Shown here one piece after another: positions 4,531 through 23,504 of a stretch of 34,336 nucleotides of DNA. This DNA comes from Anaerolineae bacterium (GTDB lineage: Bacteria; Chloroflexota; Anaerolineae; B4-G1). Location of the stretch: the NCBI GenBank assembly GCA_035529535.1, contig DATKWP010000118.1, positions 1 to 34,336 of the forward strand, read 5' to 3'. The stretch's first letter is position 1, and every line of letters starts with the position of its first letter. A model generated the notes under the pieces. The model was not told the DNA's origin, ran no database searches, and was given only the letters and a program-made list of their open reading frames with translations. Made by a program: the position numbers and the translations under genes.

Positions 4531-5748
4531 ATGGGGCAACTGCCCAAATTGCGGCCCGTGGAAGCCCACCCGCTGCTCCACGAGGGCCGGCCTTCTATTC
4601 TGTTGCGTGACCCATTGCGGCTCTCCGCAGAGAGCATCGTCATCCCTCAGCAGTGGGCGCCGCTGCTGGCCCTGTGCGACGGCACGCGGGACGCCAGGGG
4701 ACTGAGCGCTTCCTTGGCCGTCCGCTTCGGAGTGCAGGTACCCCCCGACCTGCTGAGCCGGCTGCTGGCTGCGCTCGACCAGGCGTTGCTGCTGGACAAC
4801 GAGCGCTCCGCACAGGCGCAGGCCCAGGCCCTGACCGCGTACCGCCAGGCCCCCTGCCGCTCGCCCGCCATGGCCGGGCAGTCGTATCCGGCCGACGCAA
4901 GAGCGCTGCGTGCCCTGCTGGACGGCTACCTGGCCGCCGCGGGCGAGGCAGGTCCCGCCGCCACCGGCTGCGGCCTGGTCAGTCCCCACATTGACTACGC
5001 GCGCGGCGGCCCGCTCTACGCCCGGGTCTGGCAGCGGGCCGCCGGGGTGGCCCGGGCGTCCGATTTGGTCGTGTTGTTGGGTACGGACCACTACGGGGCA
5101 GACGGCCGGCTGACGTTGACGCGCCAACACTATAGCACGCCGCTGGGCGTGCTGCCGACGGCGCAGGAGGTCGTGGACGCGCTGGCCCAGGCGCTGGGTG
5201 AGGAGGAATCCTTCGCCGGCGAACTCCACCACCGCAGCGAACACTCCATCGAACTGTCGGCGGTCTGGCTACAGCACGTGCGCCAGGGCCAGCCGTGCCC
5301 GGTGGTGCCGATCCTGTGCGGCTCGTTCGATCACTTTGTGCGCGGCGAGGCGGAGCCGGGCCAGGACCCGGCCATGCGCGCGCTGGCGGACACGCTGCGG
5401 CGGACGACGGCCGGGCGGCAGGTGCTCGTGGTGGCCTCGGCCGATCTCTCCCACGTCGGGCCGGCCTTCGGCGGCGCGCCGCTGAACTTGGTGGGGCGCG
5501 CCCGCGTGAAAGCCGCCGACGAGGAACTGATCGCGCGCATCTGCGCGGGCGACGCGGAAGGGTTTTTTGCCGCCGTGCGGCGCGCTGGCGACCGGTACAG
5601 CGTGTGCGGTCTGCCCCCCATCTACGCAGCGTTGCGCATCCTGGGCCCCGTGCAAGGGGAGGCACTAGCCTACGACCGTTGCCCCGCCGACGAGAACGGC
5701 ACCTCCACCGTGTCCGTATGCGGCATAATCCTCAAACGTGAAACGTGA
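4531..5748 (+). CDS. MEMO1-family protein (AmmeMemoRadiSam system protein B-like) with an N-terminal PqqD-like extension
   Basis: AGGAGA SD lies 4-5 nt before ATG 4531. MEMO signatures are present: GLVSPHIDYARGG, LLGTDHYG, SEHSIELS, VASADLSHVGP, YSVCGLPPIY. The first ~100 aa (ILLRDPLRLSAESIVIPQQWAPLLALCDGTRDARGLSASLAVRFGVQVPPDLLSRLLAALDQALLLD) resemble PqqD/RRE-type domains. Confidence 0.8.
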   Translation: MGQLPKLRPVEAHPLLHEGRPSILLRDPLRLSAESIVIPQQWAPLLALCDGTRDARGLSASLAVRFGVQVPPDLLSRLLAALDQALLLDNERSAQAQAQALTAYRQAPCRSPAMAGQSYPADARALRALLDGYLAAAGEAGPAATGCGLVSPHIDYARGGPLYARVWQRAAGVARASDLVVLLGTDHYGADGRLTLTRQHYSTPLGVLPTAQEVVDALAQALGEEESFAGELHHRSEHSIELSAVWLQHVRQGQPCPVVPILCGSFDHFVRGEAEPGQDPAMRALADTLRRTTAGRQVLVVASADLSHVGPAFGGAPLNLVGRARVKAADEELIARICAGDAEGFFAAVRRAGDRYSVCGLPPIYAALRILGPVQGEALAYDRCPADENGTSTVSVCGIILKRET

Positions 5749-5796
5749 AACGTCACACGCCAAGCGTCAAACTTCCAGCCTCCAACCTCCAACCAA
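5734..5796. repeat. Nine tandem heptamers (AAACGTG x2, AAACGTC, ACACGCC, AAGCGTC, AAACTTC, CAGCCTC, CAACCTC, CAACCAA)
   Basis: Period-7 reading. The first units encode the last residues (KRET*) of the MEMO-like protein. The last units are the reverse complement of family I (TTGGAGG). Confidence 0.8.
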
Positions 5797-6219: not shown

Positions 6220-6280
6220 GAACCTGTCATGAAGAACACTCACCCGCTCAGCAAGTTACGATCTCGCAGGTAAAGTCACG

Positions 6281-6322
6281 CATTCCGCATTCCGCATTCG
6301 GCATTCCGCATTCCGCATTACA
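6281..6322. repeat. Six tandem heptamers, family II (CATTCCG x2, CATTCGG, CATTCCG x2, CATTACA)
   Basis: Read directly from the sequence. The block ends 6-12 nt before the fni start codon and runs into the AGAGGGAG SD region. Confidence 0.95.
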
Positions 6323-6334
6323 GAGGGAGTGGCC

Positions 6335-7348
6335 ATGCACAAACAGCGCAAGTCCGACCACATCCGCATCAACCTGCAAGAGGACGTTGACTTCAAGTAC
6401 GTCTCCACGGGCTTTGAGCACTACCGGTTCATCCACTGTGCGCTGCCTGACCTCAATCTCGAGGACGTGGACACCTCGACCATGCTGCTGGGCAAGCGGT
6501 TGGCGGCCCCGCTGCTGATCTCCTCAATGACGGGTGGTACGCCGGAGGCCAGCGCGCTCAATCAGCATCTGGCGGAAGCGGCCCAGGCCGCCGGGATCGG
6601 CATGGGGCTGGGCTCGCAGCGCGCCGCCATCGAAGACCCGGCCCTGGCCGAGACCTACCGCGTGCGCCAGGTGGCCCCCGACGTCCTGTTGATGGCCAAC
6701 CTGGGCGCAGTGCAGTTAAACTATGGCTACGGCCCCGACGAATGCCGCCGGGCCGTCGAAATGGTGGAGGCCGATGCGCTGATCCTGCACCTCAACCCGC
6801 TGCACGAGGCGCTCCAACCCCGAGGGGAGACCCGCTTCGCGGGCCTGTTGCCCAGGATCGAAGCCGTCTGCCGGGCCCTGGAGGTACCCGTCGTGGTCAA
6901 GGAGGTCGGCTGGGGGTTCTCGGAACAGGTGGCCCGCGACCTGGCGGGGGCCGGGGTGGCGGCGCTGGACGTGGCCGGGGCGGGCGGCAGTTCGTGGAGC
7001 CAGGTGGAGATGCACCGCGCTACCGGCGAGCGGGGGCGCCAGGTGGCGGCGGCCTTTGCCGACTGGGGCATTCCCACCGCCGAAAGCCTGCTGATGGCCC
7101 GGCGTGGGGCGCCCGGGCTGCCCCTGATCGCCAGCGGAGGCATACGCGACGGCATCCAGATCGCCAAGGCGCTCGCGCTCGGCGCGACGGCCTGCGGCGT
7201 GGCCGGCCCGTTCCTGCGCGCCGCCGCCGAGTCCGCCGCCGCCGTGGCCGAAGTCATCGCTACGCTGGTGACCCAATTGCGGGTGGCGATGTTCGCGGCG
7301 GGGGCGGGGAATATTCAGGAACTCCAGCATACGCCTCTCTTCACATAG
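6335..7348 (+). CDS. fni: Isopentenyl-diphosphate delta-isomerase, type 2 (FMN-dependent)
   Basis: [46 protein letters not shown] and [20 protein letters not shown] are IDI-2 signatures. ATG 6335 is preferred over GTG 6329 because of the SD spacing. Confidence 0.92.
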
Positions 7349-7380
7349 CACGTTTCACGTTTCACGTTTCACGTTTCACG
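7349..7380. repeat. Tandem heptamers, family III (CACGTTT x4 plus a partial unit)
   Basis: The block starts 1 nt after the fni stop codon (TAG 7346-7348) and ends about 10 nt before the GGAAGGAGGGGA SD of the next gene. Confidence 0.95.
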
Positions 7381-7404
7381 CAATACGCGGAAGGAGGGGA
7401 GTTG

Positions 7405-8436
7405 GTGACCGGGCGGGCTTCATCCCTCAGTACGTTCTTTCACTACTTGACAGCACTCGAAGCAGAGATGCGGACGGTCGTGCGGACGGCCGATCCACGC
7501 CAGGCCGGGCTGTTCGGCATGTTGCATTATCACCTGGGCTGGGCCGACGCCGCGATGCGTCCCGGCCAGACCCAGGCCGGCAAGCGGATGCGGCCCATGC
7601 TGTGCCTGCTGGCCTGCGAGGCCTGCGGTGGCCAATGGGAGCAGGCGGTTCCCGCGGCGGCCGCCCTCGAACTGATGCACAACTTTACCCTCATCCACGA
7701 CGACATCGAGGATGGGGACGAGACGCGCCGTGGCCGCCCCACCGTGTGGGCCTTGTGGGGGCAGGCGCAGGCGATCAACGCCGGGGATGCGCTGTTCGCG
7801 CTGGTCCAACTGGCGCTGGTGCGGCTGGAAGAGCGGGGAGTTCCCGCCACGACCGTCGTGGCGGCCATTGGGCTGCTCAACCGCACCTGCGTGGCGCTCA
7901 CCGGCGGCCAATACCTCGACATCGGCTTCGAGAGCCGTGAGCAGGTCTCGATGCCGGAGTACATGGCGATGATCGAGGGCAAAACGGCCGCCCTGGCCGC
8001 CAGTGCCAGCGAGATGGGGGCGCTGCTGGCCGCAGCGCAGCCAGCGCGCCGCGAGCACCTGCGGGCGTTCGGCCACCACCTGGGGCTGGCCTTTCAAATG
8101 CACGACGACGTCCTGGGCATCTGGGGCGACTCGGCGCTCACCGGCAAGCCGGTGGGGGCCGACATCGCCAGGCGCAAGAAATCGCTGCCCCTCCTCCACG
8201 GCCTCGAACGAAGCGCAGAACTGCGCGCGCTCCTGGCGCAGGAAACGCTCTCGGCGGACGACGTGCGCCGCGCGACGCGGCTGCTGGAGGAGGTGGACAG
8301 CCGCGCATACGCCGAGCAACTGGAGCGGGAATATCACGCCCAGGCGCTGGACGCGCTGGCGAAAACGGGCCTGGAAGGCCCGGCCGTCCAGGCCCTCCAG
8401 GAACTGGCGCAAGTGCTCCTCCGCCGCGCCCAGTAG
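7405..8436 (+). CDS. Polyprenyl diphosphate synthase (trans-isoprenyl diphosphate synthase, GGPP synthase-like)
   Basis: Only the C-terminal 343 codons of track ORF 6742..8436 are real. The upstream part overlaps fni out of frame. GTG 7405 (or TTG 7402) follows the SD GGAAGGAGGGGA. The first Asp-rich motif is LIHDDIEDGDETRRGRP and the second is FQMHDDVLGIWGD. GKRMRP and KKSLP motifs are also present. Confidence 0.88.
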   Translation: MTGRASSLSTFFHYLTALEAEMRTVVRTADPRQAGLFGMLHYHLGWADAAMRPGQTQAGKRMRPMLCLLACEACGGQWEQAVPAAAALELMHNFTLIHDDIEDGDETRRGRPTVWALWGQAQAINAGDALFALVQLALVRLEERGVPATTVVAAIGLLNRTCVALTGGQYLDIGFESREQVSMPEYMAMIEGKTAALAASASEMGALLAAAQPARREHLRAFGHHLGLAFQMHDDVLGIWGDSALTGKPVGADIARRKKSLPLLHGLERSAELRALLAQETLSADDVRRATRLLEEVDSRAYAEQLEREYHAQALDALAKTGLEGPAVQALQELAQVLLRRAQ

Positions 8437-8441
8437 TGCGC

Positions 8442-8635
8442 ACGTGACCTACGCCTATCCACGATCTTCGTAGGTCACGCTTGCAGCGTGACGAAACCCG
8501 CCCACACACGCGACGGCCGTCACGTTACAAACGTGACCTACGCCTTCCACGATCTTCGTAGGTCACGCTTGCAGCGTGACGAAACCCGCCCACACGCGAG
8601 GGCCGTCACGTTACAAACGTGACCTACACCTACGC
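8442..8635. repeat. 2.2 tandem copies of an ~89-bp unit made of three overlapping palindromic hairpins (REP/BIME-like)
   Basis: Unit starts (ACGTGACC) are at 8442, 8531 and 8617. Hairpins: GTGACCTACG-N15-CGTAGGTCAC (8444-8478, 8533-8566); GTCACGCT-TGC-AGCGTGAC (8474-8492, 8562-8580); GTCACGTT-ACA-AACGTGAC (8519-8537, 8605-8623). The array fills the convergent spacer between stop codons at 8436 and 8630. Confidence 0.9.
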
Positions 8636-9532
8636 TCCGCGCATCGGGCAGGATAGCAGCCGCCGTAAGGCCACACCGTCGGCGGGGTCGGTCGGCTTCG
8701 CAGTCACCGTCCAGACTTCCCGGTGTACGACCTCCTCGTCCGGGTAAAAGGTCGCCAGCGGCCCCAGTGTCTCCAGCTCGATCAGCCGCCGGGACGTGTA
8801 GACCTGGAGCGGGCAGTCCTCGTCCGGGTAGCGCACACCGGGCATCCAGTGGTATGACTTGAGGAACGTGGCATCCTCCCGGCACAGGGCGACCCACCCT
8901 TCCGGGCAACTGGTGCCCACCTTGCCCTCCTCGCCGGTTGGGGCGACCCGGAACAGGTCCGGCCCGGGCTGCCACTGCTGGCTCGTCACGTCCGAGCCAT
9001 GGCCGATCCAGCGACTCCAGTAGATGATCTTCTTGAGGTCCCAGGCCCCACCCCGCCCCCACGGGAAGACGACGACCCCCTTGGGCTCGACACAGGTAAG
9101 TGCCCACGGGGCTCCCGTATAGAGCATGTCGCCGGTGTACCGCGCGCCGTGCTCCACCACGAAGCGGCCATCGCGCGCGGTGACGGTGAGCCGCTTTTGC
9201 AGTTTCGTCTGCGATGCGACGGGGGCGAGCACCGTCAGCCGGTCGGCAGCGACCTCCACCTCGCAGCGCGCATTGTCCGGCGCATACGTGTGCTCGGTCT
9301 CCGGCGCGATCCAGAAGCGGTGCCCGCCGTAGACGTACCAGGCCGCATCCTCCTGGCCCTGCCCGGCCGTCTCCTCGTCCACGAACAGCAGGTTCGGCCC
9401 GCCGCCGGCCGAGAGGGAGAGGATACGGGGACCGATCTCCGTCACGATTACCATCTCGGCCTCTCCCAGGCGCAGCCGGTAGGCCTCGCGCCAACCACGA
9501 AATTCGGTCCGTTCGATTTTCATTGCACCCAT
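8630..9532 (-). CDS. Hypothetical beta-rich protein (possibly a DUF4380 / aldose-epimerase-like fold)
   Basis: GGAGG lies 6 nt before ATG 9532 (ATG 9523 is an alternative). Coding-type GC3 bias. YGGHRFWIAPE and a Trp/Gly-rich beta-strand-like composition are the only hints. No catalytic motif is recognised. Confidence 0.6.
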   Translation of the reverse strand: MGAMKIERTEFRGWREAYRLRLGEAEMVIVTEIGPRILSLSAGGGPNLLFVDEETAGQGQEDAAWYVYGGHRFWIAPETEHTYAPDNARCEVEVAADRLTVLAPVASQTKLQKRLTVTARDGRFVVEHGARYTGDMLYTGAPWALTCVEPKGVVVFPWGRGGAWDLKKIIYWSRWIGHGSDVTSQQWQPGPDLFRVAPTGEEGKVGTSCPEGWVALCREDATFLKSYHWMPGVRYPDEDCPLQVYTSRRLIELETLGPLATFYPDEEVVHREVWTVTAKPTDPADGVALRRLLSCPMRGA

Positions 9533-9559
9533 ACGGCACCTCCCCAAAAACAGTCCGCT

Positions 9560-10357
9560 TCAGCCCTGGCTGAGCGCTCGGGCCCGTTGGAAGAACTCTG
9601 CGGTCAAGGCCGGGACCACCTCGTCGCGCTTGACCGCCGCGATGTACTGCGCCAGGCTATCGGCCGCCAGGCGCACGAGGGTACGCCCCTTCTCCTCGGT
9701 AGCGGCCCGGGCATCGCCCGCATAGTGCTCAGGATAATTGCTGTACCACCAGATGCCGGTGAAGGTAGGCGGCAAGTCCTTCATACGGTTCAACGGCAGG
9801 GCCGGCTGCTCCGGCACCCGCTCCATCTTGACCAGGTCAGGGTAGGTACCCAGGACCGCGCTGGTCTCCACCTCGCAGGCGTGCCCGCCGAAGGACGTGG
9901 CGCGCAGGGCCTCCCATTCCTTTTCCCCTTCGGGCGTGAGGAACTGCATCGGCATGTATAGATGGTAGGGTTTCTCTTCCCACAGGCTGCACTGGGCCAG
10001 GAAGGCCAGGAGATGCTCGTTGCCTCCGTGGCCGTTGTAGACCACGATCTTCTTGAACCCATTGCGCCCGATCTCGTCAAACACGCCCTGGAGCAGCTCT
10101 ATCAGCAACCCCGGCGCGATGGTCACGGTGCCAGGGAAGCAACGCGCCTCATAGATCTGGCCAAAGTAGAACGGCGGGAAGACCACGGCGGGTTCCTTTT
10201 CCGCCGCCAGGCTTGCGATGGCGTGGCAGGTGAGGTAATCGGTGCCCAATGGCAGATGGTCGCTATGTCGTTCGACGACTCCCATGGCGATCACGCACAC
10301 GCTGCTCTCACGCACCGCCCTGGCAAAATCTGGAGCAGTCAACTGTTCCCACTGCAT
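9560..10357 (-). CDS. Creatininase-family amidohydrolase (creatinine amidohydrolase / MftE / ArfB superfamily)
   Basis: Only the C-terminal 265 codons of track ORF 9560..11752 are real. ATG 10357 follows AAGGAGGGAAAG. Family motifs present: VERHSDHLPLGTDY, VYNGHGGN, FGGHACEVETS. Confidence 0.85.
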   Translation of the reverse strand: MQWEQLTAPDFARAVRESSVCVIAMGVVERHSDHLPLGTDYLTCHAIASLAAEKEPAVVFPPFYFGQIYEARCFPGTVTIAPGLLIELLQGVFDEIGRNGFKKIVVYNGHGGNEHLLAFLAQCSLWEEKPYHLYMPMQFLTPEGEKEWEALRATSFGGHACEVETSAVLGTYPDLVKMERVPEQPALPLNRMKDLPPTFTGIWWYSNYPEHYAGDARAATEEKGRTLVRLAADSLAQYIAAVKRDEVVPALTAEFFQRARALSQG

Positions 10358-10434
10358 CGGCTTTCCCTCCTTAAACTCTAGTCTGGTAGAGACCAGGTTT
10401 CTCCCAGTTTCCCAAGAACCCGGTTTCTTGAACA

Positions 10435-11694
10435 CTACTTGGACGGCCGTCGTCCGGGCAACAGCCGGACGGCAGCCACGCCGGCGATCCCGAAGACGCC
10501 AGCGGCGAACAAGAAGGGGGCGCGCAGCCCCAGCCACACCGCCAGCGCGCTCCCCATCAGCGGCCCGACGGCGTTGGCCACCGACGCGAAGGTGGCATCC
10601 ATGCCATAGATGATACCCTCCTGGCCCTCCGGCGCCAGCCGGGCCAGCCAGGCACTGACGGAGGCCAGTATCCCTCCCATAGCCAGCCCTGTCCCGGCCT
10701 GCCAAAGCAGCAAGGCGGCGGGACTCCCGGCGAAGGCCTGAGGCACGTAGCACACGACCGAGATGGCCGCACAGGCCAGCAGGATCCAGCGGTAGCCCAC
10801 GCGGTCGCCGAGCCAGCCCAGGCCCAGCGCCCCCACGGCGCCGGCAGCGGCGCTGCCTCCACTGACCAGCCCGGTGATCGAGGCCACGCGGGCGTCCGCC
10901 GGAACGATGGACTGGATGAAGAGCGGCAGCACCGGGCTCAGCAGGTTCGACCCCAGTTTCATCACCAGGCGCACTCCCAGGATGCCCAGCACGGCCGAGC
11001 CCAGCGCCGGCGCCAGCCGGTTCCATAGGCGCGCGCGGGAGGTCGCCCCGCCCACCCCGGCCCCACCCTGTGGCTCCCTGGATGGTGCTACGGGATGGAA
11101 TTCCTCCCGCACGAAGAACAGCACCCCCATCCCGGCCAGGAACAGCAGCGCCCCGGTGACCCAGAAGGCGGCCTGGTAGCCCAGCGTGTCGGCCACCAGC
11201 CCTCCCAGGAGGGGGCCGACCGAGGAGCCCACGTAAACCGCCATCTGTAAGAGGCCCAGCGCGTAGCCGGCGCGCTCGCGGGGGGTGTTGGTGGCGACGA
11301 GAGCGGTGGCCGCCGTGACCGTGCCGGTCAACGCACCTTGCAGCATGCGCAGGATGGCCAATTGCTGCACCGTGCGGGCCAGGCCCATCAGGCCGATCAC
11401 GATGGCTCCACTGAACATGGCCCGCTCGACCATCACCTTGCGGCCACGGCGATCGCTGATCGCCCCCCAGATCGGGCCAAAGATCGCCATGGTCACGGCG
11501 TGAGCGGTGTAGATCAGGCCGGACCAGAGCTTGACCTCCCGTTCGTCCTGCACGCCCAACCGGGGCACGTAGAGCGGCAGCAGGGGCAGCACGACCGAGA
11601 ACCCGACGATGGCCACCAGTTCGGCGAACCAGATCGCGATCAGGTTGCGCCGCCAAGAGGGGAGGGCGTTGGCGGAAAATGTGTGGTGAGACAT
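10435..11694 (-). CDS. MFS transporter (12-TM, DHA1-like)
   Basis: Track ORF 10435..11982 trimmed to ATG 11694 (MSHHTFSANALPSWRRNLIAIWFAELV...). The MFS motif A-like GAISDRRGRKVM lies between TM2 and TM3. Hydrophobic segments repeat throughout. No SD is evident upstream, where heptamer repeats abut the ATG. Confidence 0.8.
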   Translation of the reverse strand: MSHHTFSANALPSWRRNLIAIWFAELVAIVGFSVVLPLLPLYVPRLGVQDEREVKLWSGLIYTAHAVTMAIFGPIWGAISDRRGRKVMVERAMFSGAIVIGLMGLARTVQQLAILRMLQGALTGTVTAATALVATNTPRERAGYALGLLQMAVYVGSSVGPLLGGLVADTLGYQAAFWVTGALLFLAGMGVLFFVREEFHPVAPSREPQGGAGVGGATSRARLWNRLAPALGSAVLGILGVRLVMKLGSNLLSPVLPLFIQSIVPADARVASITGLVSGGSAAAGAVGALGLGWLGDRVGYRWILLACAAISVVCYVPQAFAGSPAALLLWQAGTGLAMGGILASVSAWLARLAPEGQEGIIYGMDATFASVANAVGPLMGSALAVWLGLRAPFLFAAGVFGIAGVAAVRLLPGRRPSK

Positions 11695-11771
11695 GATGCG
11701 TGAAACGTGAAACGTGATGCGTGTTGCGTGGCTGGCACGGAATACGGAACACGGAACACGCACGACGCGAT
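11695..11771. repeat. Eleven tandem heptamers (GATGCGT GAAACGT GAAACGT GATGCGT GTTGCGT GGCTGGC ACGGAAT ACGGAAC ACGGAAC ACGCACG ACGCGAT)
   Basis: The block fills most of the spacer between the mttB-family stop codon (11793) and the MFS start (11694). It mixes family III and family II units, reverse-complemented relative to 7349 and 6281. Confidence 0.9.
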
Positions 11772-11792
11772 GTGCAGGGATGAGTGTGTAGG

Positions 11793-13259
11793 CTATTTGT
11801 GCCGCTGTTCGGCCTGGGCGATGATCTCTTTCAGGTTGGCTTCTACGTCTGCCGGGATGGGCATGGGCTGATGCTGTTCGAGGATGTCTATCACCTTCGC
11901 CCGCACCCGCTCGCCCATCGTTTTCTTGCCGCCGGCCTGCCAACTGCGGCGCTGCTGGCGGTCTATCAGGGTCGGGAGCCATAACTCTGTCCTAAAGTGC
12001 TTGCGCGTGTGTTCCTGGGTCAGGTAATGGCCCCCCGGCCCCACCCGCTCGATGACGTCCGCCGCCAGCGTCTCGGGCGTGACCACCACGCTATCCAGGA
12101 TGCGCCTGGCCATGCCGATGACCTCGTCCGCCATGACGAGCATGTCGTAGGAGCCGACCAGGCCCCCCTCCAGGTAGCCCACGTCGTGGATCAGGTTGGC
12201 ACCCGACAATGCGGCGATGACGACCGACAGGGTGGCCTCGATGGCTGCCTGCTGGTCGAGCACCTTGGAATCGGAGCAGCCGGCGGTGGAGAACATGGGC
12301 AGGTGCAACCACCTGGCGACGTCGGTCATGGCGGCGCTGACCAGGGCCAGTTCCGGCGCGCCGTAGGACAGGATGGAGGTTTGCATGTCCATGGCGGAAT
12401 TCACGCCGCCGATGACGACCGCCGCCCCTGTGCGCTTGAGTTGAGCCAGCACGACGCCCACCAGGCACTCGGCCAGGGCCTGGGCCAACGTACCGGCCAG
12501 GGTCACGGGGCCGGTGCCCCCGCACATGATGCAAGGGGTGTAGATGGCCGGGATACCCGTTTCGGCGGCGTACAGGACCTTGTCCACCGCTTCGACCGAG
12601 TTGCTCAGGGGGGAACTGGGCTCGATGTAGACGACGAAGAGGGGGGCAGCGGTGAACTCGTGCGCTCCGCCCAGCACCTCGCAGGCCATGTGGTACTGGT
12701 CGGCCAGCCCCTCTTTGTCCACGGCGGTGATGACGAGCGGCTTGGACGTGCCCTGCAGCATGGCCAGGAACTGGTGGCGATCGTAGACCTGGGGGAGCAC
12801 GCCGGACGTCAGGCCCAACGACATGTGAAAATCAATGTGGGAGAGCGCGTCGCTGATGCGGGCCGCGTCGGTTACGTCCCGGTAGGTATACTTGCGCACC
12901 TCGTCCGTGTAGGGGTCTATCAACGAGGGGCAGTCGGAGCCGGTGCCAAAGTAAGCCTTGTCTTTTTCCAGGACGATGCGTTTGCGGCGGTCCCGCCCGG
13001 CGACGACGATCCGTTCGGCGGCGGTGTTCAGCGCTTGCTTGACCAGCCAGGAGGGAATGTACACCCGGCGGCCCGTGGCGGCCTCTCCAGTGCCCATCCG
13101 GCAGCCAGCGCCGTGCAATAGGGCCACCCCCTCTGCTCCATACACGCGCGTGCCCGTCCGCTCCAGGACGTCCAGGCTGGCGTGGAAGACCTCTTCGATC
13201 TGGTCGCCGGACAGCACGCGGAACTGGGGCGTAGCGTTCACCTGGTAGTTGGCTCTCAT
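11793..13259 (-). CDS. MttB-superfamily (trimethylamine methyltransferase-like) corrinoid-dependent methyltransferase, non-pyrrolysine member
   Basis: Track ORF trimmed to ATG 13259, with a GGGAGGA SD inside the end of the upstream gene. The protein is 488 aa and resembles MttB/MtgB along its length: FRVLSGDQIEEVFHASLDVLERTG, GTGSDCP, IYTPCIMCGGTGPVTLAG, GAPELALVSAAM, MFSTAGCSDSK, IHDVGYLEGG, GPGGHYL. The frame is uninterrupted, so there is no in-frame amber codon. Confidence 0.88.
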   Translation of the reverse strand: MRANYQVNATPQFRVLSGDQIEEVFHASLDVLERTGTRVYGAEGVALLHGAGCRMGTGEAATGRRVYIPSWLVKQALNTAAERIVVAGRDRRKRIVLEKDKAYFGTGSDCPSLIDPYTDEVRKYTYRDVTDAARISDALSHIDFHMSLGLTSGVLPQVYDRHQFLAMLQGTSKPLVITAVDKEGLADQYHMACEVLGGAHEFTAAPLFVVYIEPSSPLSNSVEAVDKVLYAAETGIPAIYTPCIMCGGTGPVTLAGTLAQALAECLVGVVLAQLKRTGAAVVIGGVNSAMDMQTSILSYGAPELALVSAAMTDVARWLHLPMFSTAGCSDSKVLDQQAAIEATLSVVIAALSGANLIHDVGYLEGGLVGSYDMLVMADEVIGMARRILDSVVVTPETLAADVIERVGPGGHYLTQEHTRKHFRTELWLPTLIDRQQRRSWQAGGKKTMGERVRAKVIDILEQHQPMPIPADVEANLKEIIAQAEQRHK

Positions 13260-13264
13260 GGCGA

Positions 13265-13915
13265 CTATCCTCCCAGCAGCCCTTTGACGGCTTCCACCGC
13301 GCGGGTGGCGTTTTCGGCGTAGCCGTCGGCGCCGATCTCCGCGGCCCACTCGGGGCTGGTGGGCACGCCGCCGATGAGCACCTTTACCCGCTCCCGCAAG
13401 CCGGCCTCCTCGAGCGCGTGGATGACGGCTTCCTGGTTGAGCATCGTCGTGGTGAGCAGCGCCGAGAGCCCCACCACGTCGGCGTTCGCCTGGCGCACGG
13501 CGTCCACGAAGCGCTGCGGCGACACGTCCACGCCCAGATCGTGCACCTCGAAGCCGTTGGCCGCCAGCATGGTGGCGACCAGCGTCTTGCCGATCTCGTG
13601 GATGTCTCCCTGCACGGTGCCGATGACGATCCTGCCCAGCACCTGGCGCTCCTGTTTGCGCTTGACCAGTTCGGGCTCCAGTGCGGCGATGGCCGCCTTC
13701 ATGGCCTCGCCGCTCATCATCAGGTCGGGGATGAACAGGTCTCCGCGGGCAAAGCCTTCGCCGACCACGTCCATGCCTGGCTTGAAGCCCTGCTCGATGG
13801 CGGCCAGTGGATCCACGCCCGCGCGCAAGGCCTCGTGGGCCAGTTCGCGCGCCTTGTCCGGCAGGCCGGCGATGACCGCGTCGGTCATTTCCTTGAACAA
13901 TCTCTCATCTGTCAC
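13265..13915 (-). CDS. Corrinoid (cobalamin)-binding protein, MtbC/MtgC-like
   Basis: GTG 13915 lies 7 nt after GAGGAGG. An N-terminal helical cap (B12-binding_2-like) is followed by a Rossmann B12 domain with the DxHxxG motif (GTVQGDIHEIGKTLV), GLSALLTTTM and LIGG. Confidence 0.9.
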   Translation of the reverse strand: MTDERLFKEMTDAVIAGLPDKARELAHEALRAGVDPLAAIEQGFKPGMDVVGEGFARGDLFIPDLMMSGEAMKAAIAALEPELVKRKQERQVLGRIVIGTVQGDIHEIGKTLVATMLAANGFEVHDLGVDVSPQRFVDAVRQANADVVGLSALLTTTMLNQEAVIHALEEAGLRERVKVLIGGVPTSPEWAAEIGADGYAENATRAVEAVKGLLGG

Positions 13916-14873
13916 CTAGTATCCTCCTCGGTTCGTTTTGAACCTCCCGCAGGTTCACAACCTGCGGGAGGTTAAGAATCTCGAGGGGCTCGCCCCTGGC
14001 CGGGTCACGCACCAGCGAGAGCGCCCCCTGTGTACACCTGGAGACACACACGCCGCAGCCCATGCAGGCGGCGGCGTCCACGATGGCGGCGCCGTCTTTC
14101 ACGGAGAGCGCACCGAACTGGCAGAAACCGGTGCAAGTCGCACAGCCCACGCACGCGCCAGTGTCCACGCGGCTGACGTAGCCGGAGGAGGCCAGCATGG
14201 GGGTGCCGTGCCGGTGAGCCTGCATCGCTCCGCAGCAACAGGCGCAGCAGTTGCAGATGGCATAGAAGCGGCCCAACATGGCATCCTTGAAAAACGCGTG
14301 GTGGACGTGGCCGCGCTCGTGCTCGGCCTGCAGAATCTCCACCGCCTCGGCCTGCGTGGTCCAGCGCGACCGGCGCGGGTGGTGTTCGGCGATGAAACTG
14401 GCGAACGGCTCGCCGACGATCAGGCAGACGTCGAGCGGCAGGCAGGGCTCGGGACGCGCGGCCCGGCAGGGGCACTCGAGCGCCACGATGTGATCGGGAG
14501 AGCGCAGGACGATGTCGCGGGCGCGGGCGTAAGGAATCACCTGTTCCAGGTTGGACAGGTTGATCTCTTCGTTGACCGTGACCAGTTGCGTGGCGGCGGC
14601 CAGCGGCACGACCTTGCCGTGGTAGGTGTCGGCGAAGGTCACGCGGCCGGCGTCACCGGCCGGCCTGGGCGGGGACAGCCGGGCCAACCCGCGCACCAGC
14701 AGCCCAAAGAGGCGGGCCAACCGGTGTTCTCCGGTCCCAATGCCAATGTACAGGTAGGGCCAGCGGGCATACACGTAGCCGTGGAGCCAGTCGAAGAGCG
14801 AAAAGCCCGGGGTGCGCCGGGCTTCCCGCGCAAATGCCACCGTCGAAGGCTTGAGCCACTTTTTCCAAGCCAT
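13905..14873 (-). CDS. Cys-rich iron-sulfur protein with a C-terminal 2x[4Fe-4S] ferredoxin domain (family not recognised)
   Basis: Track ORF trimmed to ATG 14873, with a GAGGAG SD. Two ferredoxin motifs are present: CVGCATCTGFC and CMGCGVCVSRC. Upstream Cys clusters are ECPCRAARPEPCLPLDVC and ICNCCACCCG. The 3' end overlaps the corrinoid gene start by 11 nt. Confidence 0.75.
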   Translation of the reverse strand: MAWKKWLKPSTVAFAREARRTPGFSLFDWLHGYVYARWPYLYIGIGTGEHRLARLFGLLVRGLARLSPPRPAGDAGRVTFADTYHGKVVPLAAATQLVTVNEEINLSNLEQVIPYARARDIVLRSPDHIVALECPCRAARPEPCLPLDVCLIVGEPFASFIAEHHPRRSRWTTQAEAVEILQAEHERGHVHHAFFKDAMLGRFYAICNCCACCCGAMQAHRHGTPMLASSGYVSRVDTGACVGCATCTGFCQFGALSVKDGAAIVDAAACMGCGVCVSRCTQGALSLVRDPARGEPLEILNLPQVVNLREVQNEPRRILGDR

Positions 14874-14880
14874 GTTCTCC

Positions 14881-15960
14881 TCACCCCGCGAAGCCGCAAT
14901 GGCTACGCAACACTGCGGACAACTCGTGCAACAGCCCCAGCACCCGCTCGGCCAGCGGCTCGGTGAGCACGCCGCCAGCGCCACAACTGGGGGTCAGCAG
15001 CGCCCGCCGGAGCAGCAGGTCCCGCTCGAACCCCTTGCGCACCAACCGCTCGAGCCCCTCTTCCAAGCGCCCGAGCAGCGAAGCCACGCTCTCGATCGCC
15101 GCGGCCTCCCGGCTGAGCGTGGGGACGATGCCCCACCCCAGGCTCCCGCCCCGCTCCAGGAAGGCACGCAGTTCGGCGGGATAGAGCGTGATGGCCTGCA
15201 GGTGGTCGTAGGCGTCAAAGTCCAGGACGTCCAGGTCAGCCTCCATCAGCAACGACCAGTCGGTGTTGGCTTCGCAGTGCACGCCCGCGAGTGCGCCGTG
15301 GGCGTGGATCGCCGCGGCCACCTCTTTCAGGTCGCCGACGACGTCCTCCCGGCTGACCGTGATGAAAGTCTGCGACCCAAAGCCCAGCAATGCCGGCTCG
15401 TCGAGAAAGATCATCACGGGTGCACCGAACGTCCCCAGCCGGGCGATCTGCCACACCGCCTTCAAGGCCACCGTCTTGACGATCACGTCGCGCAGTTGGT
15501 CGTCGTAGTACGAGCAGCGACGGTCCTGGTCGGGCAGGTTGGTGCCCAGCGTGAAGGGGCCGGTGACCTGCCCCTTGAGCATCACCGGTGGGGCCGGCTG
15601 TTCCGGCAGCCGGGCGACGAACTCGGCAAAGCCCGCCGCGTACTGCAGGGAGAGGCCGAAAGTGTCGAGCGCAGCGAGATCCCCACCCTCGCTCGCGGCC
15701 AGGTAGCGGGTATAAAAGTCGGTCAGTTGCTCGGTGAAAGCGGAGGCTCCGGTATCGAAATAGACCCTGTCGCCCTCCTCTACCAGCCCCGGCAGCCGCT
15801 CGGTGAACTGCACCATCATGTTCTCGTGGAAGACGCGCCGGGGGAACTGCACCCAGGTGGGGATCTCGGGGACGCTCTCGAACATGAGGGCGGTGCCGCG
15901 CGCCACGTCGGTGTGGGGCAGGCTCCCAATCGCCGTAGCCAGGCAGCATGGTTCGAACAT
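14881..15960 (-). CDS. MetE-like (cobalamin-independent methionine synthase C-terminal fold, 'core MetE'-type) methyltransferase
   Basis: GGAGGA SD before ATG 15960. The N-terminal ATAIGSLPHTD resembles the TTIGSFPQT motif of the Meth_synt_2 family. Candidate zinc ligands are VHCEAN and LTPSCGAG. The protein is 359 aa, a single-barrel size. A UroD/MtaA-type fold cannot be fully excluded by eye. Confidence 0.65.
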   Translation of the reverse strand: MFEPCCLATAIGSLPHTDVARGTALMFESVPEIPTWVQFPRRVFHENMMVQFTERLPGLVEEGDRVYFDTGASAFTEQLTDFYTRYLAASEGGDLAALDTFGLSLQYAAGFAEFVARLPEQPAPPVMLKGQVTGPFTLGTNLPDQDRRCSYYDDQLRDVIVKTVALKAVWQIARLGTFGAPVMIFLDEPALLGFGSQTFITVSREDVVGDLKEVAAAIHAHGALAGVHCEANTDWSLLMEADLDVLDFDAYDHLQAITLYPAELRAFLERGGSLGWGIVPTLSREAAAIESVASLLGRLEEGLERLVRKGFERDLLLRRALLTPSCGAGGVLTEPLAERVLGLLHELSAVLRSHCGFAG

Positions 15961-15984: not shown

Positions 15985-16623
15985 TCATCCCCGGCCTCCT
16001 CGAGTCTGCTCATCCAGCAAACCCCGCAGGCGCGCGGTGACCATCTCGATGGCGACCTCGTTAAAGCCCCCCTCGGGGATGATGACGTCGGCGTAGCGTT
16101 TGCTGGGCTCGACGAACTCCAGGTGCATGGGACGCACCGTCGAAAGGTATTGCTCACAGACCGACTCGACGGTACGGCCCCGCTCCAAGATGTCACGCCG
16201 CAAACGGCGGATGAAGCGCACGTCGGCGTCGCCATCCACGTAGAGTTTGACGTCGAACAGTTTACGCAGTTCCGGCTCGACGAAGACCAGGATGCCCTCG
16301 ACCAGGATCACCGGGGCCAGTTCCACGCGCCGGGTGTGGGGTGTGCGCGTGTGCGTGGTGAAGTCGTAGATGGGAATTTCGACGGCCCGCCCATCGCGCA
16401 GTGCCCGCAGGTGTTCCACCAGCAGTTTCGTCTCCAGTGAATCCGGGTGGTCAAAGTTGACCTGAGACCGCTCGTCGGGCGAGAGGTGGCTGAGGTCGCG
16501 GTAGTAGGCATCGTGGGGGATGTAGGCGATGTGTTGCGCGCCCACGCGCTCCAGAATCTCTTTGGCCACCGTGGTCTTGCCCGACCCGGTCCCACCGGCC
16601 ACGGCTATCACAATCGGCCGCAT
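15985..16623 (-). CDS. udk: Uridine kinase
   Basis: P-loop VAGGTGSGKTT. The match to Udk is full-length: YYRDLSHLSPDERSQVNFDHPDSLE, ILVEGI, FIRRLRRDILERGR. Confidence 0.92.
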   Translation of the reverse strand: MRPIVIAVAGGTGSGKTTVAKEILERVGAQHIAYIPHDAYYRDLSHLSPDERSQVNFDHPDSLETKLLVEHLRALRDGRAVEIPIYDFTTHTRTPHTRRVELAPVILVEGILVFVEPELRKLFDVKLYVDGDADVRFIRRLRRDILERGRTVESVCEQYLSTVRPMHLEFVEPSKRYADVIIPEGGFNEVAIEMVTARLRGLLDEQTRGGRG

Positions 16624-16633
16624 ACTTGCCCTC

Positions 16634-16696
16634 CTCCAGTCTCCAGTGACCAGGGATCAGTGATCAGTATCCAGGATCAAGCATCGAGTGTCAAGC
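16634..16696. repeat. Nine tandem heptamers, family IV (CTCCAGT x2, GACCAGG, GATCAGT x2, ATCCAGG, ATCAAGC, ATCGAGT, GTCAAGC)
   Basis: The block fills the spacer between the membrane-protein stop codon (16691) and the udk start (16623). On the minus strand, the units closest to udk contribute the GGAGGAGGG SD. Confidence 0.9.
16666..16694 (-). promoter_or_regulatory. Candidate promoter upstream of udk, embedded in the heptamer block
   Basis: Minus strand: TTGACA (16694-16689), 17-nt spacer, GATACT (16671-16666). The -10 matches consensus at only 4 of 6 positions. Confidence 0.35.
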
Positions 16697-18605: not shown

Positions 18606-18663
18606 CTACCAATCGCTCCATCAATGCTCCTGCCGGTACTCAGAGGGAAACAAGCACAATGAG

Positions 18664-18736
18664 AGCCACCCCTGGGAGTCGAACCCAAAACCGACCGCTT
18701 ACGAAGCGGTTGCTCTACCGATTGAGCTAGGGTGGC
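18664..18736 (-). tRNA. tRNA-Thr (anticodon CGU)
   Basis: The reverse complement is GCCACCC TA GCTC AATCGGTA GAGC A ACCGC TTCGTAA GCGGT CGGTT TTGGG TTCGACT CCCAG GGGTGGC T. It folds into a canonical cloverleaf with a 7-bp acceptor stem and the anticodon loop TT-CGT-AA. CCA is not encoded. Confidence 0.93.
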
Positions 18737-20675: not shown

Positions 20676-20693
20676 TAGCGTCCCCTGGATCGC

Positions 20694-23504
20694 ATGTCAC
20701 ACGATAGCCAAGCCGCCCGCCGCGAACGCATCCTACTCCTCATCGCCGCCGGTTTCATCCTCACTGGCATCCTGACCCTACGCATTGCGGAACGCGGAAC
20801 GCGGAATGCGGACTACGCCGGCGGGTACGCCGGGTTACGGATTACGGATTACGCATTCGCTTTCTGTTCATTCGCCGCCACGTTCGCCCTCGCCCACGTC
20901 TTGCTGAGCCGTTACCTGCCCGAGCACGACCCGTTCCTGCTGCCGGTGGCGGCCCTGTTGACCGGCTGGGGCCTCCTGCTCATCGGGCGGCTGGCCGCCA
21001 ACTTCCTCGTGCGGCAGACGCTCTGGCTGTGGATCTCTACCGTGGCGCTGTTGGCCACCGTCCGGCAGGGCCGCGACCTGCGCTGGCTGCGGCGCTTTCG
21101 CTACACCTGGCTGTTCGGAGGGTTGGCGCTCCTGGCGGCCACGCTCGTCCTCGGCGTCAACCCCTCCGGCTATGGCCCGCGCCTGTGGCTGGGCGCCGGA
21201 GGCGTCTACTTCCAACCCTCGGAACTGCTGAAACTCCTGATGGTCGTCTACCTGGCCTCTTACCTGGCCGAGAAGGGAGAACTGCTCACCTCGGAGGGCC
21301 GGCGGGTAGGACGCTGGCACCTGCCCCCCCTGGCCTACGCCGGCCCCTTACTGGCAATGTTCGGCCTGGCGGTGGTGCTGCTGGTCTGGCAACAGGACCT
21401 GGGCGCGGCGATGCTGTTTCTCTTCACCTTCCTGGCCATGCTCTACCTGGCGACCGGCCAGTGGGGATACGTCGCCGCCGGCCTGGCCCTCTTCCTCGTC
21501 GCCGGGCTGGCCGGCTACCGGCTGTCCGACCGCATCGCGCTGCGCGTGGACGGCTGGCTGAACCCGTGGCCCGAGGCCTCCGGCCGCGCTTTCCAGATCG
21601 TGCAGTCGCTGCTGGCCTTTGGCGCCGGGGCGGTCTTTGGACAGGGCCTGGGCCTGGGCAGCCCGACCTACATCCCGGCCGTCCACACCGACTTTATCTT
21701 CGCCGCGATCGGCGAAGAATTCGGCCTGGCCGGCGTTCTGGCCGTCGTCGCCCTGTACGCGGCGTTGATGCTGTGCGGCTTCCGCGTCGCCGCCCGCGCG
21801 ACGCGGCCGTTCGAGCGCTTCCTGGCCGCCGGACTGGCCGCCGGGTGGGCCATCCAGGCCTGGGTCATCATGGCCGGCAACGCCAAACTGGCCCCGATTG
21901 CTGGCGTCACCCTGCCCTTCGTCTCCTACGGCGGCAGTTCCCTGCTGACCTCGTTCATCGCGCTGGGCCTCCTCCTCCGCATCTCCAGCACAAGGGTGGT
22001 AAACTGGGAAACTGGTAGATTGGGAACTGGTAAATTGGGAACTGGTAAATTGGGAGATGGTCGCCAATCCACCAATCTACCAATTACCAATCTACCGGCT
22101 ACCAGTCTACCAATCACCAATCTACCAACTACCAGTCTACCAATCACCAATCTACCAACACTGGCCCTCGTGCTATCGCTGGCCCTGGCCCTGCTGGCTG
22201 CCGTGTGCGGCTACTGGGCCATCATGCGCGCCGACGACCTGCGCGCGCGCGACGACAATCCGCGCCGCGTGCTCTACGAGCAGCGGATCGTGCGCGGACG
22301 CATCCTGGACCGGGAGGGGACCGTACTGGCCAGCGTGGAGGTCGGGGACGACGGCACGATCACGCGCCGTTACCCGGTTCCGGAGGCCGCGCCGGTCCTG
22401 GGTTACGCCAGCCTGCGCTATGGCACCGGCGGGATCGAGGCCGCCTTCGACCGTGAATTGCGCGGCGAGGCCGGCCGCAACGACTGGCAAATCGCGTGGG
22501 ACGAACTGCTCCACCGACCCCCGCACGGCCGCGACGTGCAGTTGGCGCTCGACGCGGGGCTGCAGGTCCAGGCCCAACAGGGCCTGGACGGCCAGCGCGG
22601 GGCCCTGGTCTTGCTGGACGCTGCCACCGGCGAGGTTCTGGCCATGGCCTCCAGTCCCACCTACGACCCGCAACACCTGGACGAGGAGTGGGAAGCGCTG
22701 CGCGAGGACCCGGCCGCGCCGCTGGTCAACCGCGCCACCCAGGGCCGCTATCAACCCGGGGCCGCCTTGCAGACGGCCATCGTGGCCGAGGCGCTGAGCG
22801 AGGGACTGGCTACTCTCTCGATACCTGCGGCAGACGCGACGGCACGCCTCACGATCAACGGCTTCGAGTTAGGCTGTGGGGCGGTCCCCTCGCCGCCCTA
22901 CACCCTGGCCACCGCCTACGCGGCGGCCTGCCCGGCCCCTTTCGCCGACCTGGGCGCCCAGTTGGGGGCGGCGGCCCTGGAAAAGATGGTGGAACGGTGG
23001 GCGCTCACCACCCCACCCCCGCTAGAGATGCCGGCCGAGGCAGCCGATTGGAGCGCGGAAACGCTTTCAGGCACGGCGACCCTGGCGGTCGAGGCCATCG
23101 GCCAGGGCATGCTGACCATGTCGCCACTGCAGGCCGCGTTGATGGCCGGCACGCTCGCCAACGAAGGAGAAATGCCCATCCCACGGCTCGTGTTGCGCGT
23201 GTGGGATGCAGAAAACGGCTGGTTGGAACGGGCTGAGGCCGGGGAGCCTCGCCAGGTCCTCACACCCGGCATCGTCTGGGCGCTGCTGGCGACCTGGCGG
23301 CGCTACGACGGGGAAAAGGTCGCTGCGCACTGGGGAGCCGCGGCGGCCGGTGCAGGGCAGCCGCCACACGCCTGGTTCATCGGCGTGGCACCGGCGACGG
23401 GCCAGCCGCGCTACGCCATCGCCGTGCTGGTCGAACACGCTGCCGACCCCGAGAGCGCGGCGCGCATCGGCGCGGCGCTCTTGCAGGCAGCGACGGCCCA
23501 ATAA
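20694..23504 (+). CDS. Fusion protein: RodA-type SEDS peptidoglycan polymerase plus a class-B PBP-like domain with degenerate transpeptidase motifs
   Basis: Residues 1-~435 are SEDS: RERILLLIAAGFIL, DPFLLPVAALLTGWGLLLIGRL, FQPSELLKLLMVVYLASYL, VHTDFIFAAIGEEFGLAG, LPFVSYGGSSLLT. A repeat-encoded linker follows, then a TM helix (LALVLSLALALLAAVCGYWAI). The PBP2/PbpA-like region contains RGRILDREG, LLDAATGEVLAMASSPTYDP, LVNRATQGRYQPGAALQ and HAWFIGVAP. The ORF is a single uninterrupted 936-codon frame. Confidence 0.85.
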   Translation: MSHDSQAARRERILLLIAAGFILTGILTLRIAERGTRNADYAGGYAGLRITDYAFAFCSFAATFALAHVLLSRYLPEHDPFLLPVAALLTGWGLLLIGRLAANFLVRQTLWLWISTVALLATVRQGRDLRWLRRFRYTWLFGGLALLAATLVLGVNPSGYGPRLWLGAGGVYFQPSELLKLLMVVYLASYLAEKGELLTSEGRRVGRWHLPPLAYAGPLLAMFGLAVVLLVWQQDLGAAMLFLFTFLAMLYLATGQWGYVAAGLALFLVAGLAGYRLSDRIALRVDGWLNPWPEASGRAFQIVQSLLAFGAGAVFGQGLGLGSPTYIPAVHTDFIFAAIGEEFGLAGVLAVVALYAALMLCGFRVAARATRPFERFLAAGLAAGWAIQAWVIMAGNAKLAPIAGVTLPFVSYGGSSLLTSFIALGLLLRISSTRVVNWETGRLGTGKLGTGKLGDGRQSTNLPITNLPATSLPITNLPTTSLPITNLPTLALVLSLALALLAAVCGYWAIMRADDLRARDDNPRRVLYEQRIVRGRILDREGTVLASVEVGDDGTITRRYPVPEAAPVLGYASLRYGTGGIEAAFDRELRGEAGRNDWQIAWDELLHRPPHGRDVQLALDAGLQVQAQQGLDGQRGALVLLDAATGEVLAMASSPTYDPQHLDEEWEALREDPAAPLVNRATQGRYQPGAALQTAIVAEALSEGLATLSIPAADATARLTINGFELGCGAVPSPPYTLATAYAAACPAPFADLGAQLGAAALEKMVERWALTTPPPLEMPAEAADWSAETLSGTATLAVEAIGQGMLTMSPLQAALMAGTLANEGEMPIPRLVLRVWDAENGWLERAEAGEPRQVLTPGIVWALLATWRRYDGEKVAAHWGAAAAGAGQPPHAWFIGVAPATGQPRYAIAVLVEHAADPESAARIGAALLQAATAQ
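20781..20860. repeat. About eleven heptamer units inside the SEDS coding region (GCGGAAC x2, GCGGAAT, GCGGACT ... TTACGGA x2, TTACGCA)
   Basis: Period-7 reading. The GCGGAAY units are the reverse complement of family II (6281-6322). The block encodes ...AERGTRNADYAGGYAGLRITDYA... between predicted TM1 and TM2. Confidence 0.8.
22004..22160. repeat. Two opposed tandem-repeat arrays (15-nt period) encoding the SEDS-PBP linker
   Basis: First array, 22004-22060: (GGAACTGGTAAATTG)n, encoding GTGKL repeats. Second array, 22064-22160: (ACCAATCTACCAAYY)n, encoding TNLPx repeats. GGTAGATTGG (22014-22023) is the exact reverse complement of CCAATCTACC, which occurs at 22072, 22087, 22117 and 22147. The units are related to family I. 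Confidence 0.9.

Follow-up and report, generated by a model that had tools for sequence, protein, structure and literature searches.

Gene content of the locus

The DNA under study is a 34,336-nt stretch from an Anaerolineae bacterium (contig DATKWP010000118.1 of assembly GCA_035529535.1), referred to below as the window, with a G+C content of about 67%. Read directly, it contains a string of seven open reading frames (ORFs), all on the minus strand, which begins with a homologue of the core methionine synthase MesB and continues with a Cys-rich ferredoxin-domain (Fe-S) protein, a corrinoid protein, a pyrrolysine (Pyl)-free methyltransferase of the MttB superfamily, a major facilitator superfamily (MFS) transporter, a member of the creatininase family and a DUF4380-like protein (Table 1). 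Here, I propose that the locus is a composite whose genes, in one Anaerolineae population, have come to run in the same direction as a single string, and I discuss whether its first and fourth genes may serve a common corrinoid protein in methionine synthesis.

The layout given in an earlier note on this DNA, made from the letters alone, is borne out by the gene calls on four public contigs, 100% identical to one another, which reproduce the seven genes and their spacings: in order, 7 nt, an 11-nt overlap, 5, 98, 77 and 27 nt, the last being taken from the contig gene calls. The overlap lies between the end of the Fe-S gene and the start of the corrinoid gene. As to the families that the note had proposed, profile searches recovered MTTB, B12-binding, Fer4, MFS and Creatininase, and gave no match to Meth_synt_2.

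Table 1. Position (in nucleotides of the window) and assignment of the features of the seven-gene string and of its upstream neighbour
Feature	Position	Strand	Assignment
Uridine kinase (Udk)	15985-16623	-	Upstream neighbour in conserved Anaerolineae synteny
MesB-like	14881-15960	-	MesB/core-MetE-family single-barrel zinc thiol methyltransferase homologue (putative), H-C-E subclade, 359 aa
Fe-S protein	13905-14873	-	Cys/His-rich, 322 aa, C-terminal Fer4
Corrinoid protein	13265-13915	-	MtgC/MtbC/MttC type, methyltransferase-cognate
MttB family	11793-13259	-	Pyl-free MttB-superfamily methyltransferase (methyltransferase 1, MT1), large Anaerolineae clade
UGC codon (Cys328)	12276-12278	-	Aligned with the UAG/pyrrolysine codon of true mttB
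Spacer MttB/MFS, 98 nt	11695-11792		Two heptamer tandem repeats: TGATGCG x5, CACGGAA x3.6
MFS transporter, DHA1/MdtG-like	10435-11694	-	PF07690, 9e-51
Creatininase-fold amidohydrolase family member	9560-10357	-	PF02633, 1e-52
DUF4380/TTE1925-mutarotase-like beta-rich protein	8630 to ~9532	-	Start 9523 or 9532

The MttB homologue and its corrinoid protein

Residues 5-484 of the MttB homologue match PF06253 (MTTB) at 5.4e-99, and the structures 7xcl, 2qne and 9yce match it at E ~1e-64. It belongs to the same superfamily and shares the TIM-barrel fold with both the Pyl-dependent MttB of Methanosarcina barkeri and the MtgB of Desulfitobacterium hafniense, from which it is equidistant at ~220 bits each (222 bits to 7xcl, 220 bits to 2qne and 9yce). 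With TIGR02369, the model for Pyl-dependent trimethylamine methyltransferases, it scores 422.8 bits, below the cut-off of 525. The ORF is uninterrupted by stops and, in the alignment to 7xcl, reads UGC (Cys328) at the pyrrolysine codon, as the earlier note had held in calling the enzyme Pyl-free; a Cys occupies this site in all 14 orthologues in which the region is present. The Rfam element PYLIS_3 is matched at 12179-12278 on the minus strand, its UAG falling onto the UGC, at 34.1 bits (gathering score 38), and in the orthologue of locus L091 (2475-2574) the match rises above gathering, at 40.9 bits. It is read as coding-sequence homology to Pyl-encoding mttB, not as a functional element, and such homology suggests a close kinship of the Pyl-free clade with the Pyl-encoding genes, or its derivation from them.

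The residues by which MtgB binds glycine betaine are Y97, R312, H348 and F356 (PMC13080624). The aligned positions here are S108, F323, H358 and G366, that is, one of the four ligands is kept (His348), and the identification of the MttB homologue as an MtgB was rejected on this ground. Arg312, which binds the carboxylate and is common to betaine and carnitine enzymes, is replaced by Phe. Since this protein has S, F and G in place of three of the MtgB ligands (Y97, R312 and F356), its substrate is probably not a carboxylate betaine. Compared with Pyl-MttB, G110-T111 are kept, Pyl334 has become Cys, Tyr364 has become His (His358), and Met249 has become Cys. The clade is large and highly conserved, counting over 120 clusters with identities of 75% or higher; few of its members have a named source, and these are labelled Anaerolineae.

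The corrinoid protein matches PF02310 (B12-binding, 1e-30) and PF02607 (B12-binding_2, 4e-22), carries the His-on motif DxHxxG in the form DIHEIG, and reaches 229 bits with TIGR02370 (cut-off 215.3), as expected of a methyltransferase-cognate corrinoid protein.

The company kept by MttB in relatives was examined in 17 metagenome loci with orthologues 67-82% identical, 12 of which are informative in that their sequence extends upstream for 500 bp or more. A homocysteine S-methyltransferase gene of MetH type (PF02574, 5.6e-70) lies directly upstream of MttB in 10 of the 12, and wherever the contig extends far enough the corrinoid gene precedes it; from this it follows that the module serves the methylation of homocysteine specifically. 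Loci L088 and L091 are without the PF02574 gene, L090 has a fragment of it only, and in L092 (1564-3729) an insertion sequence/transposase gene (483 aa, minus strand) truncates it just upstream of the MttB orthologue. A weakly matching Met_synt_B12-like gene follows MttB in L090; neither the window nor the other loci have such a gene. Clusters of this kind, with a non-Pyl MttB, had been described in other phyla by Williams 2022 (PMC9324843), who proposed that they make methionine, the methyl donor being left unspecified. The window departs from that cluster in having neither the PF02574 gene nor the activation-domain gene. The search for partner enzymes covered the 34-kb window and a further 10 kb of its contig (44 kb in all). 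It returned no PF02574 gene and no alternative candidate for the second methyltransferase (MT2), no RamA or RACo gene and, in the Pfam results for all large ORFs of the window and for the flanking 10 kb, no pterin-binding MT2 gene; the local absence of the pterin enzyme and of RamA, noticed earlier, thus holds over the wider stretch.

A MesB-like protein with a modified metal site

The first gene product has no sequence match in Pfam, NCBIfam or PDB, and with PF01717 (Meth_synt_2), the canonical catalytic domain of MetE, it gives no match at the gathering score. The family to which it belongs is large (more than 3,800 close matches; 1,866 clusters at 50% identity), and weak Meth_synt_2 matches were found in 10 of 50 members, the best at 3e-4; a PDB profile search returned only spurious matches to pentatricopeptide (PPR) repeats. 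An AlphaFold2 (AF2) model built with 50 diverse homologues as input is very confident (pLDDT 97), and its best PDB folds according to Foldseek are the C-terminal, catalytic barrels of MetE (E ~2e-8, template modelling score 0.54-0.60), followed by the MtaA-like 4ay7 and then by UROD. A single MetE catalytic barrel, free of a folate domain and 359 aa long (~340-390 aa being the range adopted for MesB), is what is expected of a MesB protein. The MetE-like identity claimed by the earlier note thus finds no support in sequence profiles and is recovered from the fold and from the spacing of catalytic residues.

Positions conserved throughout the family are G12/S13/P15, D187-E188-P189, H228-x-C230, D249 and C326. 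They include the two homocysteine-site motifs of MesB, IGS (residues 11-13) and DEP (187-189): S13 is invariant in the alignment of the close clade and at least 90% conserved family-wide, and D187 is invariant in both. In the Dehalococcoides enzyme, homocysteine is bound via Ser15 and Asp177 (Price 2021), and zinc via His215, Cys217, Asp236 and Cys312. A Dehalococcoidia member of the family, from locus L081, has H219, C221, D240 and C316, with spacing identical to the published core-MetE, and is 42% identical to the window protein (277 bits). In the zinc motif H-x-C...D/E(+21)...C(+97), the window protein has H228, D249 and C326 correctly spaced, and Glu230 where the second Cys is expected. 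Since the wider family reads HVC, HIC or HCC at this place and the window protein reads H-C-E (residues 228-230), the canonical zinc Cys is replaced by Glu, with a Cys one residue earlier; the candidate ligands are H228, E230 (or C229), D249 and C326. The H-C-E form is common to a whole subclade with identities of 62% or higher (L005-L024), to which Anaerolineae and some Desulfobacterota contribute, and no description of it was found in two published accounts of MesB/core-MetE.

From the alignments and the predicted model I conclude that the product is a MesB-family core methionine synthase homologue, with the H-C-E site as a caveat. The family, described by Price 2021, uses methylcobalamin and not methyl-tetrahydrofolate in vitro, in agreement with what the earlier note had stated of core MetE enzymes; the in vivo donor has so far only been predicted, as CoFeSP, the Wood-Ljungdahl pathway's corrinoid iron-sulfur protein.

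The Fe-S protein

The sole Pfam match of the second gene product is Fer4, at residues 235-290, corresponding to a C-terminal 2x[4Fe-4S] ferredoxin domain. The remainder is an orphan N-terminal domain of about 230 aa (residues 1-232), with no Pfam or PDB match, with invariant CPCR..C..C and CNCCxCCC motifs and nine invariant His; its AF2 model is poor (pLDDT 54, whole protein). Over 120 protein clusters of the family share 72% identity or more, a conservation on par with that of the MesB-like family. As the ASKHA-type ATPase domain (RACo_C_ter, PF14574) is absent, its identification as a RamA or RACo activase was rejected. It might act as an electron donor for re-reduction of the corrinoid.

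Contexts of the MesB-like and Fe-S genes in other genomes

Eighty loci with MesB-like homologues (39-80% identical) were collected from GTDB species genomes, 55 of them with at least 3 kb of downstream sequence. The conserved gene order in Anaerolineae is ResB, an unknown gene, Udk, in some cases an epimerase, MesB-like and Fe-S, and then unrelated genes; among the collected loci, the Fe-S gene adjoins the MesB-like gene only in L009, and a corrinoid gene is found in three. In other phyla, an HCC-motif subfamily lies within CooC-MesB-CODH-ACS clusters (carbon monoxide dehydrogenase and acetyl-CoA synthase), in three loci with a small MtgC-like corrinoid protein upstream; the CODH/ACS gene context of MesB has been reported by Price 2021. 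MetK or AhcY (S-adenosylhomocysteine hydrolase) lies within about 5 kb of the MesB-like gene in 6 of the 80 loci (L017, L018, L019, L033, L066 and L081), MetK being less than 2.1 kb away in three of these six. In L017 and L018 (H-C-E clade, Anaerolineales; 6621-7838), MetK precedes the MesB-like gene on its own strand, at a distance of 133 nt. Two further candidates for the four-gene arrangement, P0002/P0416 and P0050/P0395, had been suggested by contigs of equal length and proved to be coincidences.

Interpretation

The composite can be viewed as two units. One consists of the MesB/core-MetE-type gene followed by the gene for the Cys-rich ferredoxin-domain protein, both resident members of the syntenic Anaerolineae gene series. 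The other is the module of corrinoid protein and Pyl-free MttB which, in relatives, carries the MetH-type homocysteine S-methyltransferase gene between the two; here it lacks the PF02574 gene and is joined to the 3' end of the first unit via the 11-nt overlap. As to function, the MttB homologue would move a methyl group from a small methylated compound to the Co(I) of the corrinoid protein, and the MesB-like enzyme, holding homocysteine at its metal site, would then transfer it from methyl-Co(III) to the sulfur, yielding methionine without folate and replacing the PF02574 enzyme of the related clusters. I give this reading a probability of about 0.45, that is, somewhat short of even. The order of the genes, their families, the fold, the conserved residues and the neighbourhoods in relatives are observed; the use of the MesB-like enzyme as MT2, the direction of the flow and the donor are inferred. 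The reading is favoured because of the operon-like spacing, the use of methylcobalamin by MesB, the homocysteine-directed context of the MttB orthologues and the precise absence of the PF02574 gene. The MetE-type fold and residue spacing, the small corrinoid proteins, CODH/ACS genes and MetK or AhcY found beside family members elsewhere, the published proposal for clusters of this type and the lack of another MT2 candidate within 44 kb count in its favour as well. A more elaborate form of it appears unlikely. In this form, the MttB system with Cys in place of Pyl would have taken over, as its methyl-corrinoid:homocysteine methyltransferase, a MesB with a remodelled site (His/Glu/Asp/Cys for His/Cys/Asp/Cys), and the Fe-S protein would be a new ATP-independent partner, a corrinoid activator or electron relay, the whole being a folate-free and RamA-free way to methionine from a methyl compound of the environment.

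Several observations weigh against the methyl transfer from MttB to the MesB-like protein. The four-gene arrangement was seen only on the four identical contigs, hence in one population: an MttB gene is near the MesB-like homologue in none of the 80 loci (55 with the downstream sequence needed), and a MesB-like or Fe-S gene is near MttB in none of the 17. The earlier note had asked whether the quartet recurs as a neighbourhood and had named its absence from every related genome, beforehand, as one of the findings that would refute the proposal; with 0/80 and 0/17, this is what was found, which restricts the arrangement to a single population. In further Anaerolineae contigs the MesB-like and Fe-S genes hold the same syntenic position without MttB, and therefore their adjacency to it could be an accident of insertion. 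In L091, too, the corrinoid and MttB genes adjoin each other and are not flanked by an MT2 gene, which shows that an MT2 can be encoded elsewhere. The canonical HxC Cys is Glu in the subclade of the window protein, and because of this a thiol-methylating activity is not assured. Lastly, no activase was found within the 44 kb.

The main rival explanation draws on the same observations. It holds the adjacency to be incidental: the MesB-like and Fe-S genes would be housekeeping genes in a fixed place on the chromosome, the MesB-like enzyme would make methionine with another corrinoid donor, and a corrinoid-MttB cassette would have landed behind the two genes, its true MT2 (a PF02574 homocysteine methyltransferase or a pterin-binding enzyme) and its activase being encoded elsewhere in the genome. 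Besides the synteny from ResB to Fe-S that is kept without MttB, the absence of the quartet from the related loci and the case of L091, it is favoured by the fact that MesB-like genes occur without the Fe-S gene and Fe-S genes without the MesB-like gene. The 11-nt overlap and the gaps of 5-7 nt, however, indicate one transcription unit, the PF02574 gene that usually lies between the corrinoid and MttB genes is absent at the very locus where the gene upstream is for a homocysteine methyltransferase that uses corrinoids, and no other MT2 is encoded within 44 kb. Such an incidental adjacency is a distinctly possible, if doubtful, account. It is quite unlikely, by comparison, that the locus serves a catabolic demethylation of quaternary amines as performed by MtgBCA of Desulfitobacterium or by MtpB/MtcB/MtyB of Eubacterium limosum, whereby tetrahydrofolate would receive the methyl group as a source of energy and carbon, a pterin-binding MT2 and RamA being encoded elsewhere. 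MttB superfamily membership, the cognate corrinoid protein and the presence nearby of anaerobe-type genes (a flavodiiron protein and ferredoxins) are in line with it; yet only one in four of the glycine-betaine residues of MtgB is kept and Arg312 is Phe, the orthologues are paired with a homocysteine methyltransferase and not with a pterin-binding one, and neither a pterin MT2 nor RamA is encoded within 44 kb.

The three downstream genes had led the earlier note to suggest creatinine or creatine as the substrate, and the transporter as its importer: the MFS protein would import an N-methyl cyclic amide, the creatininase homologue would open the ring, MttB would demethylate the product and the methyl group would pass to homocysteine. 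The neighbours are indeed co-directional, with gaps of 98, 77 and 27 nt, and the hydrolase falls within the broad PF02633 family. With the creatininase equivalog TIGR04448, however, it reaches 87.8 bits for a cut-off of 235, a score similar to those obtained with MftE (76, cut-off 172) and IolN (57, cut-off 245), and its identification as a creatininase was rejected. The MFS protein resembles the DHA1 efflux pumps (MdtG model, 228 bits, cut-off 571) and its orthologues, 69-70% identical, adjoin ResB in L107 and L111, both without MttB; to judge from this synteny, the gene is probably a member of the syntenic block of Anaerolineae and not of the methyltransferase module. The last gene product reaches 124 bits with NF052227 (cut-off 550) and 26 bits with PF14315 (cut-off 29), and its likeness to mutarotases points to sugar metabolism. 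None of the three genes is found at any of the 17 MttB-orthologue loci. Most likely they are unrelated neighbours; since nothing ties them to MttB, the creatinine idea is unsupported, and I regard it as very improbable.

Other features of the window

Promoter and terminator scans of the region returned sites no more numerous than by chance; the single sigma-70-like site lies at 16694-16666, upstream of the Udk gene. Neither the window nor any of 15 related loci gave an Rfam match to a riboswitch, be it for S-adenosylmethionine (SAM) or for cobalamin. A tRNA-Thr(CGT) is encoded at 18663-18736 on the minus strand, just upstream of ResB; a tRNA occupies the equivalent place in the relatives L006, L107 and L113, and is thus part of the conserved synteny.

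Many intergenic spacers contain heptamer tandem repeats of 3-6 copies and of varied units (GGAGATT, CGCATTC, CACGTTT, TGATGCG, CACGGAA and others), located at 167-203, 1653-1692, 5734-5753, 6279-6319, 7349-7380, 11694-11760, 16643-16668 and 20787-20857; TCACGTTTCACG occurs 9 times, with 0.11 occurrences expected. Repeats of the same kind lie between genes in the related locus L093, and they resemble the cyanobacterial STRR heptamers. The convergent spacer between a polyprenyl synthase gene and the DUF4380 gene contains, at 8442-8632, a tandem repeat with an 88-bp unit, present in 2.2 copies (94% matches), each unit containing the inverted repeat ACGTGACCTACG..CGTAGGTCACG. Inside this repeat, ARAGORN calls a 98-nt tRNA-Cys at 8510-8607, which is probably a false positive, as Rfam gives no confirmation. 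In addition, an array of 15/30-bp tandem repeats, TGGTAAATTGGGAAC followed by ACCAATCTACCAATT, with as many as 5.9 copies, is located at 21997-22159, within the span of a long FtsW/penicillin-binding protein (PBP) ORF (20679-23504).

Relation to known systems and significance

The MesB-like protein resembles the MesB/core-MetE of Dehalococcoides mccartyi (cbdbA481/DET0516; Deobald 2020, Price 2021) in being a single MetE-type barrel of ~350 aa with no folate-binding domain, in the positions of Ser (IGS), Asp (DEP), His, Asp (+21) and Cys (+97/98), and in that the family occurs in CODH/ACS clusters and beside small corrinoid proteins, its Joint Genome Institute (JGI) annotation being COG0620-type. 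It differs by the H228-C229-E230 sequence, in which the zinc Cys of HxC is Glu, and by its gene context, which is devoid of Wood-Ljungdahl genes and continues instead with the corrinoid/MttB pair. With the cluster of Williams 2022, the window shares a Pyl-free MttB distinct from MtgB, with MttB-like active-site motifs and a cognate corrinoid protein, and the close orthologues of the window MttB show exactly such a cluster; unlike it, the window has a MesB-type enzyme and the orphan Fe-S protein upstream. Along the same line, Mausz et al. 2025 linked MtgB and MtgC to methionine synthesis in Ruegeria pomeroyi and Phaeobacter, where, with split MetH modules, one corrinoid protein joins an MttB-family enzyme to homocysteine methylation. 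That system differs in being aerobic and specific for glycine betaine, and its pterin-binding MtgD, its PF02574-type homocysteine module MtgE and its RamA have no counterpart in the window.

It follows that the components and the central idea are already known. The folate-independent methyl transfer to homocysteine put forward by the earlier note remains plausible, in the light of the PF02574 gene beside the MttB orthologues and of the methylcobalamin use of MesB, but as an idea it is already published. What is new is the combination only, namely a MesB-type acceptor in place of a MetH-type one, the H-C-E site and the orphan Fe-S neighbour, in a single population.

If the MesB-like protein does accept methyl groups from a corrinoid protein loaded by MttB, the MesB family would for the first time be tied, on genomic evidence, to a corrinoid methyltransferase with a substrate of its own, and the MetH-type PF02574 and MetE-type MesB enzymes, which are unrelated homocysteine methyltransferases, would be interchangeable in such modules. 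The better-supported result concerns the MttB homologues themselves: a large and highly conserved Pyl-free clade of Anaerolineae, with Cys at the Pyl site and usually accompanied by a homocysteine methyltransferase, which points to a widespread, uncharacterised route by which sediment bacteria make methionine with a methyl donor taken from their environment.

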